From: a bacterium
GTDB taxonomy: Bacteria; Pseudomonadota; Alphaproteobacteria; CAJXXZ01; DAHXLG01
Direction of reading: 5' to 3'
Assembly: GCA_027371775.1 (NCBI GenBank)
Contig: DAHXLG010000002.1
Location: 2,247 to 66,246, forward strand
DNA: 64,000 bases
Part shown: piece by piece, positions 3,983 to 53,255 of the stretch
Position numbering within the stretch: position 1 is the stretch's first letter
Layout: each line of letters starts with the position of its first letter
Made by a program: the position numbers and the translations under genes
Notes under the pieces: generated by a model
Databases searched by the model: none
Told to the model about the DNA's origin: nothing
Seen by the model: only the letters and a program-made list of their open reading frames with translations

Positions 3983-4222
3983 TTTCTGTCGGATGATTAA
4001 CGGATCGAACCTTCCGACACCCAGTCTTGGAATGTATTCTGTGTAAACGCCTTCTCATTGGAATTTCTGGTGAGTGATGAAGGGATCGAACCTTCCGACC
4101 CCCAGATCTACGTGTTTTGTGTAAACGGCTTCTCATTGGAGTTTCTGTCGGATGATTAACGGATCGAACCTTCCGACCCCAGATCTACGTGTTTTGTGTA
4201 AACGGCTTCTCATTGGAATTTC
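3983..4222 (-). repeat. three tandem tRNA-3'-half-like pseudo-units (77-81 nt period) immediately 3' of tRNA-Val
   Basis: Units start at 3983, 4064 and 4142; the fourth unit, at 4219, is the real tRNA. Each unit keeps GTTTACAC (anticodon-loop remnant), GGTTCGATCC (T-loop) and an acceptor-like 3' end, but lacks the 5' half. Two alternating variants occur: ...ggatgattaacggatcgaacc in units 1 and 3, and ...ggtgagtgatgaagggatcgaacc in units 2 and 4. This fits a ~158-bp AB unit duplicated once. Confidence 0.8.
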
Positions 4223-4297
4223 TGGTGGGTGATGAAGGGATCGAACCTCCGACCCATTCGGTGTAAACGAATCGCTCTACCGCTGAGCTAATCACCC
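4223..4297 (-). tRNA. tRNA-Val (anticodon UAC), CCA encoded
   Basis: The minus strand reads GGGTGAT...TAGCTCAGCGGTAGAGCG...ATTCG-TTTACAC-CGAAT...GGTTCGATCCCTTC-ATCACCC-A-CCA. The acceptor stem is a perfect 7 bp, the T-loop is canonical, and the anticodon loop TTTACAC gives TAC. Confidence 0.9.
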
Positions 4298-4423
4298 ATA
4301 CCATGATTTTATACATTTATTTGGAATTATGCAATAAAGATTTTTTGTATTTTGCTAGCCATCTCAACTCTTAAAGACATCTTGAAAAAAAAACCTTTAT
4401 TTGTTACAATTTATGCGAATATT

Positions 4424-49550: not shown

Positions 49551-50861
49551 TTACGTCCTGAAATTAATCTTATGATCTCAAACCATGGTAACACAACTCG
49601 ATTTATTTCATTGAATCATGTTTCATATGCTAATGAAAAATAGATGCCCCAATTGAAAACTAGATTGAAAACTAGATTAAAATCATAAAGACTCATATGA
49701 AACGCTCTTCGATATACGTTTTGAGTAGGTACCAAAAAGACATTGCATTTCTTGATTCATGATGCACACAAAATAGTTACTTTCTGAAATTAATCTTCTA
49801 CACTAATCTTCTACACCTCGATTTATTACAAAATGATAAGCCTATATGAAAAGCTATTTTTATTTTGATTTCAGTTATAAATGTAGCTGCGCTTACAAAA
49901 ATTTATAAGTGTTACAAAAACAAAACAGGATCTATGAGTTGTTTGAAAAACAACAAGATCAAATGGATCAGAAATTGCTAATACGTTTTCTTTATATAAA
50001 GTTGCTATTGCAGAAATTGTTCGATAATCAACTAAGGGCAGATCATATACCTGTTGAAAAAGAGCTTGCACAAAAAGTATCACAACTTATTACACAAAAA
50101 GATATTTGGTAAAGCCTTCCTTCAATTTTTGAATAGAAGATATGAAGAAGAAAGTCTATTTGTTTTAGCTAAATTAGATAGAATTTTAGGTGCAATAGAA
50201 TAAAAAAAACCGATAAATCGAACTATAGCAACTTGCTAAGTCTTCACATCACAATAAAGCAACTGATAAAGATGTTAATGACTAAAAGGAAACCAAACAT
50301 TGCAATTAAAATATCTGCAATTAAATGACCTGTTTTCTTCAATTTTTCAAGATATGGTCGGAATCTGCTCCCCATAGTAGTTCCCTGTTGCATTGCTAAA
50401 CTAAATAGCAGATGTAATACACAAATATTTTCCAAATGAAATAAAGCGACTATAGCAAGCGCTATTGCAAATTAATATGCAGAACAGATTTCAAACTTTA
50501 TTAATTAGTGAAACTAGTTATGCTTGCAGAAAACTTGAAAACCAACTATTTTTAATCGTAAGTGTAGATAGTTATTCTTGCAAAAACTCTTAGAATATAA
50601 CTCATTTTAGCTTTCATCGGTTCAGAAAAGCTTAAACCATCCGTAAAGCTATCGGCTATTCTTATTAAAATCTAGCAAAACTATTTACATAAGCTCATAA
50701 AATATAGATATCCTCAAGAACCTATCAAAATTCTTTAATCATCTGTGAAACATATACCAGAAACTCTTAGAATATTAACTCATTTTAGCTTTCATCCGTT
50801 CAGGCAGAGTACTCATTTTATTTATCTAGCCCCATTATTATGAATTCCTACATAATAAATC

Positions 50862-53255
50862 TTAGTCATCGGTTTCAAGCAATGGTTCCATCTCCTCGAT
50901 GAAGGCTTTGCGTGGCTCCACTTCGTCACCCATCAGTTTTGCAATCAGCTCTTCTGCTTCTGTTTCATTTTCATAACGTACTTGCAAATATGATTGCATC
51001 GCCGTCTTTGCCAAATCATCTGCATTCATTTCACCAAGACCCTTGTATCTTTGAATATGCAAATCATGGCTACCCTTCTGACTTACAAGATTGAATATAT
51101 CGATAGGACTATTCACCGTGTGCTCTTGTGAATCATACTCAACATGCACATCATCAGCCCACATATGCTTCCATTTTTCAATAAACATTTTATGCTTTTG
51201 CGTAACCTTGCTCAATGAAAATGGATAGCGATATGTCAAACCATTTTTATCATAAATAAATACACAGTCTTGAGGAGGAGTTTCTCCTGTTTCATTTGAT
51301 ACTCGAAAACCCGATGCAAATTGCCACACCCATTTGCCCGGCTGCAATTTTTGTAACTTATCAAGCATTGCATTATATATACTTTTCACATTTTCTTCTG
51401 TATTTGCTGAATCAGCTTCATCATTTCTGAAATCAATTTCCGCATTGGCAATAAATGCTTCGAAAACTATGCCACGTGATTTTATATCAGATGAAATACC
51501 AAATAATGCTTTGATAAATTTCTTAACTTCATCTTTTTCCAACACTACTTGGCCGCGCTTGAAAGAAATTTTATCAATATGACGAGCTAATAAGAACTCA
51601 GCTAGCTGCTCATCGTTTAATAAATATGTAGTTTTCTGACCTTGCTTTATTCCATACAACGGAGGCTGTGCTACATATAAATATCCGTTTTCAATTATAG
51701 CTCTCATATACCTAAAGAAAAACGTAATCAACAATGTTAAAATATGGCTGCCATCAATATCAGCATCAGTCATAATAATAATTTTATTATAACGAATTTT
51801 CGTTATATCAAATGTTTCTCCAATACCTGTGCCCATTACAGCAATCAATGTACGAATACCATCGTCATTCAACATTCGATTGAGACCAGCTTTTTCCACG
51901 TTCAAAATCTTACCACGCAATGGAAGAACAGCTTGATACAATCTGTTACGTCCCATTTTGGCAGAACCACCAGCACTATCACCTTCAACAATGAACAATT
52001 CAGCTTTTGATGGATCTTTTTGTGTGCAACCAGCTAATTTCGTAGCCATGCCAAGACTAAATTCAGCTGCTCCCTTGTTACGCACTAAATCACGGCTTTT
52101 CCTAGCAGCCTCACGCGCCATTGCAGCATCAGCAATTTTTTGCACAATACGCTTTGCATCATTAGGATTTTCTTCAAACCACTTTTCAAGTGCCTGACTA
52201 ACACCAGCTTCTACTACTGGACGAACACTTGCGGAAACCAACTTTTCCTTAGTCTGAGATGCAAACTGTGGCTCAGGCAGATACACAGCTAATACACAAA
52301 CAATACCTTCACGAATATCTTCACCAGTAAGCTGCATATCTTTCATCTTCTTGGTTAGTGCAGGCTCTTTTTGTAAATATGCATTCACGCAACGTGTAAA
52401 CGCCGTACGCAGACCTACTAAATGAGTGCCTCCATCTTTTTGCCCAATTGTGTTTGTAAAACAACGCACTTCTTCTGCATAATAATTATTCACCCAAACT
52501 GCGGCACCTTCAATTGAAACATTTCCTTCTTTATAATAAAACTTGATGATCTCATGCAAGCCTTCTTTGCCTTTCATGATATTTTTAACAAATGCACATA
52601 ATCCATCTGGCTGGTAGAAATCGCGCGAATAATCGATTCGCTCATCTTTTAGATGAATTTTTAATCCAGGGTTCAAATACGAAAGTTCTTCTAAGCGATT
52701 TTCAATTATTTTCACATCAAATGTAATATCAGTAAAAATCTCAACATCTGGAAGAAATCGCACTTTCGTACCATGCTCTGCACTATCGCCTATTCTTTTT
52801 AAATCTTCAACTAAATCGCCTTTCTCAAATGCTACAAAATACTCTCCACCATCGCGTTTAATTGTAAGCTCTAATCTTTTAGATAAAGCGTTAACAACCG
52901 AAACACCTACACCGTGTAAACCACCTGAAATTTTATAGGAATCTTGATCAAACTTACCACCTGCATGAAGCTGCGTCATAATAACGATAGCAGCAGATAT
53001 TCCTTCACCTTCGTGCATATCAACTGGAATACCTCGACCGTTATCAGAAATAATAGCCCAACCATCTTTATCAATTGTTATAAAAATTTCATTACAGTGT
53101 TGAGCTAAGTGTTCATCAATTGAGTTATCCATCACTTCATAGATCATATGGTGAAGACCAGATCCATCTTGTGTGTTGCCAATGTACATGCCAGGTCGTG
53201 TCCGGCAAGCTTCTAAGCCTTTTAGCACTCTAATTGAGCGTGAGGTATATGTCAT
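50862..53255 (-). CDS. gyrB: DNA gyrase subunit B
   Basis: [65 protein letters not shown] and [10 protein letters not shown]. 797 aa. Confidence 0.95.

Follow-up and report, generated by a model that had tools for sequence, protein, structure and literature searches.

The window analysed here is a 64,000-nt stretch of DNA from an uncultured, endosymbiont-like alphaproteobacterium (contig DAHXLG010000002.1 of assembly GCA_027371775.1, positions 2,247 to 66,246 of the forward strand) that holds about 40 protein genes and four tRNA genes at a GC content of 32.6%. Coding sequence makes up 73% of it, compared with some 82% of a second contig attributed to the same genome and 86-94% of the contigs of its relatives, the last two figures being hand estimates from gene calls. 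In its spacers, the 3' ends of genes recur, mostly together with adjoining non-coding sequence, as direct copies downstream of the intact gene. Here, we describe these duplicated gene tails, their polarity and their probable origin, before placing them beside other reduced genomes in which repeats occupy the spacers.

Gene tails repeated downstream of their own genes

Repeats were located with Tandem Repeats Finder (TRF), a seed-and-extend repeat finder and self-BLAST, and duplicated tails were scored by a tail test, in which the last 60 nt of each of 42 window genes were locally aligned to the 600 nt downstream and compared with 300 dinucleotide-preserving shuffles; as a 5' control, the first 60 nt of each gene were aligned in the same way to the 600 nt upstream. 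The original prediction, made from the sequence alone, had named a series of such loci and had proposed this very comparison. All its repeats were recovered in place or close by, and a tail copy within 600 nt was confirmed at eight loci, namely those of tRNA-Val (z = 20.9), murG (z = 13.2), a 403-aa open reading frame (ORF; z = 8.0), mutS (z = 10.8), an M23 peptidase (z = 9.9), the terminase (z = 15.1), dapF (z = 44.8) and hppA (z = 5.1), a tRNA gene thus standing alongside seven protein genes, as had been claimed. The remaining loci of the prediction are either repeats of the spacer alone (proS, infA and gyrB) or marginal cases (dapE and a major facilitator superfamily (MFS) gene), and are taken up below.

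The copies had been described as mostly tandem, which holds for tRNA-Val, murG, mutS and dapF, in which tail and neighbouring spacer were duplicated as one unit and consecutive units lie no more than 2-4 nt apart. The tRNA-Val array (3982-4255, minus strand; TRF score 379) follows a gene at 4223-4297 that was called by both ARAGORN and Rfam, and consists of 3.5 copies of a 77-nt unit formed by the last 33 nt of the gene and 44 nt of spacer. Its copies alternate in an A-B-A-B pattern, giving a 154-nt higher-order structure, such that copies 154 nt apart align at 108 of 119 positions and the identity at 77-nt spacing is 84%. At murG (6617-6905, minus strand; 75% identity over 148 nt, E = 3e-20), unit 1 (6758-6905) comprises the last 38 nt of the gene, whose stop lies at 6868, and about 110 nt of spacer, and is followed 4 nt on by unit 2 (6617-6753), in which the copied tail has no stop codon. 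The mutS duplication (20296-20511, minus strand; TRF period 107, 2.0 copies, 81%) is built likewise, with the last 41 nt of the gene (stop at 20471) and 64 nt of spacer in unit 1 (20407-20511) and unit 2 (20296-20404) beginning 2 nt further on.

The most regular array is that of dapF (33481-33848, minus strand; TRF score 729), in which a 100-nt unit is present in 3.7 copies that are 99-100% identical. Each unit consists of a 68-nt segment, R, made of the last 61 nt of the gene and 7 nt beyond it, followed by a 32-nt segment, x. The x segment reads GAGTATTTAGAGCTCTGATTTATAAAGCACTT and holds the palindrome AGAGCTCT; the idea that it is a diverged copy of the downstream flank was rejected, the similarity not being significant (z = 0.2). 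In L001, a contig from another sample (ERZ27237200), dapF carries a single R without x.

In three further genes, the copied segment ends short of the stop codon. The tail of the 403-aa ORF (repeats at 11886-12041, minus strand; score 41), from about -67 to -10 relative to the stop (11984-12041), recurs at 11887-11940, with a 41-nt sub-repeat at 11886-11962. At the M23 peptidase gene (28468-28626, plus strand; score 53, 87% by BLAST), copy 1 (28468-28531) is intragenic, at -90 to -27 from the stop at 28558, and copy 2 occupies 28571-28626. The terminase, identified by the Pfam domains Terminase_6N/6C, has a tail copy (29633-30221, minus strand; 92% over 75 nt, E = 5e-23) in which the in-gene segment 30148-30221, at -110 to -36, recurs at 29633-29707, 415-479 nt downstream in a convergent spacer; a second spacer repeat (29805-29855 and 29968-30016) lies between the two copies. 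At hppA (Pfam H_PPase; 49533-49797, plus strand; 90% over 39 nt, E = 3e-7), the segment 49533-49571, comprising the last 18 nt of the gene and 21 nt of spacer, has its copy 226 nt downstream, at 49759-49797. With copies 515 and 226 nt apart, respectively, the terminase and hppA cases are not strictly tandem, and here the predicted arrangement fails.

Three more cases lie on L100, a 22.7-kb held-out contig from sample ERZ27237304 that was reached via a LeuRS homologue. It was placed in the same genome by its sample of origin, because two other contigs of that sample match the window at 99.9-100%; sequence overlap with the window plays no part in the assignment. On L100, the last 66 nt of pdhA are duplicated at 93% identity (z 33), the last 38 nt of dksA at 92% identity (z 20.7), and an ABC-2 permease gene carries a stop-spanning duplication (z 5.9), units on this contig measuring 94, 114, 132 and 186 nt. 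A stop-spanning tail duplication of pdhA is found both in L100 (4102-4362) and in L098 (3559-3785), a contig of a distant relative with 53% LeuRS identity, and the two are presumably independent events in the same gene.

A twelfth case is seen in L002, a sister assembly, alone. The 3' tail of a 282-aa ORF, present as one copy in the window (2835-3010, minus strand), occurs in L002 (4625-4990) as two diverged tandem copies of 177 nt. The window's tail corresponds to the downstream copy of L002, so that the protein ends in ...SLVGAVDFNRDF in the window and in ...SQLEQ in L002, where the downstream copy keeps an open frame of 57 codons. This difference is either a recombinational collapse or tail swap, or a collapse in assembly. 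Taken together, the copy numbers at dapF (3.7 in the window, one in L001) and at the 282-aa tail (one in the window, two in L002), each state coming from one assembly, hint at arrays that are still expanding and collapsing and at tails being replaced.

Some repeats in the window involve spacer sequence alone. Downstream of proS, two units of about 197 nt with 82% identity (9268-9650, plus strand) start 9 nt past the stop, contain no proS sequence and leave the tail test negative (z = -1.3 and 0.8). A weaker spacer repeat follows infA (13599-13796, plus strand), starting 17 nt past the stop; it scores 33 (z = 6.2) in a post hoc measurement, and the tail test is again negative, the repeat lacking the gene tail. 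Downstream of gyrB, 50581-50625 and 50758-50803 (minus strand) agree at 93% over 46 nt, the nearer copy lying 59 nt from the stop. Of the two marginal cases, the one at dapE (27114-27180, plus strand) is a 29-nt segment across the stop that recurs 38 nt later (score 28-29, z = 2.6), and the one at the MFS gene (45476-45528, minus strand) has three copies of a 17-nt period spanning the stop (TRF score 60, 70% matches, z = 2.7). Three long gene-free stretches, at 31411-33480, 9651-11223 and 13979-15352 (1.4-2.1 kb), contain few detectable repeats; they hold no ORF above 85 aa and no Rfam match, and tblastn with the ORFs of relatives found no pseudogene remnants in the long spacers.

Polarity, reading frame and anatomy of the units

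The original prediction had noted no tandem copies of 5' ends, and this has stood. In the window, no 5' end exceeds z = 3.4, and a single repeat (28951-29002 and 29193-29242) overlaps the start of a gene, namely the GTG codon of a 185-aa hypothetical ORF (28986-29543). A frameshift sets this repeat apart from its partner, and it resembles a piece of a gene with degenerate internal repeats more than a clean 5' duplication; it was counted as ambiguous. On L100, three of 18 genes have a tail duplication at the 3' end and none of 19 at the 5' end, and when the window and L100, together 87 kb, were passed through a uniform ORF pipeline, duplicated ends numbered 9/56 at 3' ends, roughly one gene in six, and 0/58 at 5' ends, rather than being equally frequent at both. 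The curated count is 11 to 0 (sign test p = 0.001, Fisher p = 3e-4). Six of the eight tail-duplicated genes of the window are minus-strand genes and two are plus-strand genes, so that the duplications go with gene polarity, as predicted; a strand or replication bias was considered and set aside, since six against two is not significant given the gene counts.

Two control sets were run through the same pipeline. Among 1175 ORFs from 80 unrelated bacterial loci (1.45 Mb), copies were found at four 3' ends and eight 5' ends, such that the 3' rate in the present genome is about 50 times that of the controls (Fisher p = 3e-11). Shuffled targets passed the threshold in none of 38 cases in the window and, across the 1175 control ORFs, in none at 3' ends and one at 5' ends. 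The second set, seven contigs of relatives (about 130 kb, 52-74% ProS identity) with a similar AT content, gave 2/88 for 3' ends and 3/84 for 5' ends. Both 3' matches, at an IMPase gene (L084) and at pdhA (L098), are robust; the 5' matches were rejected as 5'-spanning duplications, being A- or T-rich low-complexity sequence or leaders shared between tandem paralogues on inspection. The relatives carry the same genes as the window with short spacers, and the repeats at murG, hppA, M23 and other window loci are absent from the orthologous sites examined in them, which makes the burst specific to the present lineage. Contigs from ERZ27237304, ERZ27237200, SRR13203278 and SRR13201268 match the window at 99.9-100% identity over the diverged, older repeats, and these repeats are therefore not assembly artefacts.

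The polarity is also visible in the layout of the spacers. Convergent (3'-3') spacers average 641 nt and divergent (5'-5') spacers 219 nt, the reverse of the usual bacterial order, in which divergent spacers are the longer. Where genes follow one another head to tail, the repeats lie close behind the upstream stop codon, and a repeat-free interval of 112 nt or more always precedes the next gene.

Inside genes, a different rule applies. In-frame repeats occur in a 380-aa ORF (ORF 15353-16495; repeats at 15761-16428, minus strand; 147 nt x 2 and 48 nt x 3), a 636-aa ORF (ORF 18273-20183; 18457-19973, minus strand; 153/159 nt x 2 and 36 nt x 2.9), the 185-aa ORF mentioned above (29288-29540, plus strand; a 135-nt duplication ending 3 nt before the stop) and a 308-aa ORF (ORF 54303-55229; 54360-54574, minus strand; 21 nt x 3.1 and 15 nt x 4.3). 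The window has intragenic periods of 147, 48, 36, 159/153, 135, 21, 15 and 12 nt, to which L100 adds 147 and 60 nt; all 10 of 10 are divisible by three, compared with 5 of 15 among stop-spanning and spacer repeats, which is the chance level (Fisher p = 0.001). A frame rule of this kind marks a process that is blind to position and whose products are filtered by selection, and the in-frame repeats of the 380-aa ORF are the same duplication process at work inside a tolerant gene. Five hypothetical ORFs with in-frame tandem repeats, four in the window and one in L100 (19025-20539), have no Pfam match, those of the window by scanning and that of L100 by precomputed matches, and a unit of 147 nt is present in each of two separate ones, the 380-aa ORF and that of L100; they may encode fast-evolving surface or effector proteins.

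The units themselves share little beyond their position. In the window and L100, they measure 77-226 nt (77, 100, 107, about 142 and about 197 nt among those of the window), and most of the repeated length resides in units of this size, TRF matches with short units being few and low-scoring. The in-gene breakpoint lies between 17 and about 165 nt ahead of the stop (17, 33, 38, 41, 61, ~67, ~90, ~110 and ~165 nt), and neither microhomology nor a common motif was seen at unit junctions. Self-BLAST found no similarity between loci, each unit deriving from its own locus, which excludes a mobile or shared element. Terminator-like sites occur at the level of shuffles (9 vs 9.3, 14 vs 12.0 and 11 vs 10.8), eight units fold no better than their shuffles (z from -1.1 to +1.6), and the four tRNAs are the only Rfam matches in the window. 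Unit identity runs from 68% to 100% across loci, which implies a range of ages and a process that has continued over time, while the A-B-A-B order at tRNA-Val and the near-identical dapF units imply repeated rounds of duplication once a repeat exists. Stops or frameshifts interrupt the downstream copies of the 403-aa ORF, mutS, M23, terminase and ABC-2 genes; those of pdhA, dksA and dapF keep frame and stop codon and, at 92-100% identity, are simply the youngest.

Origin of the duplications

We consider it probable that frequent small tandem duplications are filtered by selection and survive behind stop codons, most likely as a passive by-product; we infer both that the duplications originate by slippage or unequal crossover and that selection, not mutation, is the cause of the polarity. 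Briefly, small tandem duplications with units of about 40-230 nt would arise at a high rate, through slipped-strand mispairing or template switching and then unequal recombination. A duplication running from the interior of a gene into its downstream spacer would leave the gene intact through its stop codon and add only an untranslated, promoter-less tail plus spacer, and would persist because it is nearly neutral. Out-of-frame duplications within genes would be purged, as would those that disturb a promoter, ribosome-binding site or start region. Surviving arrays would then decay, acquiring stops and frameshifts in their copies, or re-amplify, as at tRNA-Val and dapF, and might collapse by recombination between copies, thereby replacing the gene's own tail, as may have happened at the 282-aa ORF. 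The net outcome would be growth of 3' spacers and a low coding density. The original prediction had offered a selection filter as one of two explanations, and the frame rule, the variable breakpoints, the lack of structure, the decay of the copies and the repeat-free 112 nt upstream of the next gene all support it.

Several observations weigh against this account. Finding none among about 60 5' ends is a stronger asymmetry than a simple filter predicts, since a pure filter would seem to permit 5' duplications that carry the whole promoter and start, and the zero therefore keeps a 3'-directed mechanism alive. The AT-matched relatives offer too few events to calibrate the filter, having two robust 3' cases and 5' signals that are weak, of low complexity or paralogue-related, and no de novo, unfiltered duplication events were observed. 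At the junctions no microhomology is visible, though the units have diverged, and the 32-nt x segment is missing from the one-copy dapF allele and has no significant similarity to either flank. Finally, the dapF and 282-aa ORF polymorphisms come from single short-read or metagenome-assembled genome (MAG) assemblies and could be assembly collapses.

The second explanation, a mutational mechanism directed at 3' ends, is unlikely on present evidence but has to be taken seriously. Replication forks or repair would stall where transcription ends, with template switching producing duplications across gene ends regardless of selection; candidate stall sites include Rho-dependent termination zones, R-loops and paused RNA polymerase. 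The strictness of the asymmetry (11 vs 0) and its dependence on gene orientation on both strands speak for such a mechanism, the spacer-only repeats also start near stop codons (9, 17 and 59 nt at proS, infA and gyrB), and only at 3' ends does the genome exceed its relatives (16% vs 2%, against 0% vs about 3% weak signals at 5' ends). It sits poorly, however, with in-gene breakpoints that are scattered from 17 to about 165 nt from the stop without a common motif, with units devoid of hairpins or terminators, and with a tRNA gene that behaves like the protein genes. Tolerant ORFs, moreover, commonly carry in-frame internal duplications with units of these sizes, and the process therefore also works far from gene ends. 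We regard as doubtful the stronger proposition that the polarity is mutational, with duplication coupled to termination zones building spacer from gene tails and recombination between copies sometimes rewriting C-termini.

It is improbable that the repeats are functional 3' elements, such as multiplied terminators, stabilizers in the 3' untranslated region, small RNA genes or alternative C-terminal cassettes. That the window's 282-aa ORF ends with the 57-codon open downstream copy of L002, making tail replacement possible, and that the pdhA, dksA and dapF copies retain frame and stop would fit a cassette, but these frame-keeping copies are simply the youngest, most copies have decayed, no structure signal or Rfam family match was obtained for the repeats, and they are missing at the orthologous sites examined in relatives.

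Very improbable, too, is an origin as attachment-site (att) scars, in which phages or islands insert into gene 3' ends, bring a replacement tail and displace the original downstream. A duplicated tRNA 3' half is the classical signature of an integrase, such insertion would explain 3' polarity for tRNA and protein genes alike, and gaps of 515 and 226 nt lie between the copies at terminase and hppA. Against this, the spacer is duplicated together with the tail, tandem units abut within 2-4 nt, arrays reach 3.5-3.7 copies, units are 77-226 nt at most, the sequence between copies contains no ORFs, and a Pfam scan of ORFs of 100 aa or longer gave no integrase or recombinase domain. REP, RPE and MITE-like families and multiplied terminators were likewise rejected as a source, the loci sharing no sequence and having no hairpins.

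Chance similarity in AT-rich DNA or assembly artefact is hardly credible: low-complexity matches are common at 32.6% GC, and the dapF copy number and 282-aa ORF states each rest on one assembly, but z values of 5-45 against dinucleotide-preserving shuffles, 0/38 shuffled controls at threshold, 2/88 in AT-matched relatives and identical contigs from other samples across the diverged repeats all contradict it, and for the diverged repeats it is refuted.

The organism, its neighbouring features and comparable genomes

Exact matches to the proteins of the window are confined to one NCBI MAG plus ENA and Logan assemblies. The nearest named relative is the 'Alphaproteobacteria bacterium endosymbiont of Tiliacea citrago' (52% ProS and LeuRS identity), which has a 0.52-Mb chromosome, followed by Ca. 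Cytomitobacter and Ca. Nesciobacter, Holosporaceae that are endosymbionts of diplonemids. In protein searches for close relatives, the best segments of an alignment scan reached at most 50% identity and near-full-length alphaproteobacterial homologues at most 37% (these were reused as negative controls), and a single-protein scan gave no match. Judged by its proteins, the organism is thus not an Ehrlichia, its nearest named relatives being Holosporaceae-like endosymbionts of protists or insects, and the original prediction's view that the repeats arose independently of Ehrlichia is upheld. The solitary terminase of the gene transfer agent type is consistent with a Holosporaceae-like group (PMC9254644).

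Several other features of these contigs deserve mention. The rpoB and rpoC genes are fused into a single ORF of about 2750-2790 aa, here and in relatives (window 1-2174, minus strand; L002 1-3966; L086 14109-21251; L095 1065-9314), with the Pfam domains Rpb2 and Rpb1 in one product. At 42450-44327 (plus strand), overlapping the end of alaS by 22 nt, lies a gene for a protein of 625 aa that has a poly(ADP-ribose) glycohydrolase domain of the microbial type, and such a gene is unusual in a reduced endosymbiont. At 59609-62221 (minus strand), a T2SS-F (PilC-like) gene adjoins a T2SS-E (PilB-like ATPase) gene, and a secretin is present in the relative L096; from these gene assignments, a type IV pilus or type II secretion-like system has probably been kept in this reduced lineage. 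The region around tRNA-Val (4225-4329) resembles that around tRNA-Lys (13872-13978) at 73% over 107 nt in inverted orientation, and the similarity, which runs about 30 nt into the 5' flanks, may reflect a shared promoter or leader. Lastly, the first 325 nt of L001 are a mosaic in which window segments 37804-37924 and 37066-37261 are joined, in reversed order, to 36889 and downward, which represents either a rearrangement of the SpoU/ABC spacer (window 36889-37924) or a chimeric assembly.

As a rule, intracellular bacteria with reduced genomes keep them compact and structurally frozen; the few known exceptions are chiefly E. ruminantium, the Portiera of Bemisia and Tremblaya. The pseudogenes of E. 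ruminantium are reportedly mostly truncated gene fragments associated with repeats, an observation attributed to Collins in 2005 and Frutos in 2006. This species has the lowest coding ratio among bacteria, and its non-coding tandem repeats expand and contract (PMC10710844); slipped-strand mispairing has been proposed as a cause of tandem repeats (PMC3287509). E. ruminantium is the nearest precedent for the present genome, both being AT-rich intracellular alphaproteobacteria in which a low coding density stems from long spacers, with non-coding tandem units of about 100-200 nt and repeat-associated truncated gene fragments, here eleven tail fragments. In contrast to E. ruminantium, a member of the Anaplasmataceae, the lineage is Holosporaceae-like, copy-number variation between strains is tentative, and a strict 3' polarity, which E. 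ruminantium may share, has been quantified.

In Candidatus Portiera aleyrodidarum of Bemisia tabaci (Sloan & Moran 2013), one lineage is 69% coding with repeat-rich spacers beside a compact sister at 96%, and its tandem arrays and structural polymorphism were left by the authors without a decision between mutational and selective causes (PMC3673631). The juxtaposition of an expanded lineage and compact relatives is the same here. The repeats of Portiera, however, consist for the most part of 7-bp microsatellites, with a few dispersed perfect repeats besides, and their expansion was linked to losses of dnaQ, mutL, ruvC and other genes (PMC3673631), whereas the present units measure 77-226 nt and are built from gene tails, repeats with units of at most 40 nt not dominating, and mutS is present. 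The VNTR-105 and VNTR-141 loci of Wolbachia wMel are intergenic arrays with periods of 105-141 bp and highly similar copies whose number varies between close strains; the loci are few, no gene-tail content is described for them, and 23-bp hairpins in their units are thought to trigger slippage (Riegler et al. 2012, PMC3287509). The units described here give no hairpin signal and include gene tails. Integrase att duplications, for their part, share with the tRNA-Val array the direct repeat of a tRNA 3' part downstream of an intact gene, but differ from the present loci in that here the spacer is co-duplicated, units abut, more than two copies occur and the scanned ORFs contain no integrase domain.

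Seen against these systems, the genome represents a further, phylogenetically independent case of spacer expansion driven by tandem repeats in a reduced intracellular genome, set apart by the unusual clarity of its 3' polarity. Only if that polarity proved to be mutational would it count as a system of a new kind, and it would then amount to a previously undescribed, transcription-polarized form of genome expansion in a reduced bacterial genome. What the case offers is that the raw material of spacer growth, namely gene tails, can be read directly, with compact relatives carrying the same genes, and that the contrast between 3' and 5' ends, together with the frame rule, allows what mutation supplies to be told apart, by simple counting, from what selection filters out in any bacterial genome. 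For the organism itself, a pseudo-tail lying downstream of a gene may come to replace that gene's real C-terminus.

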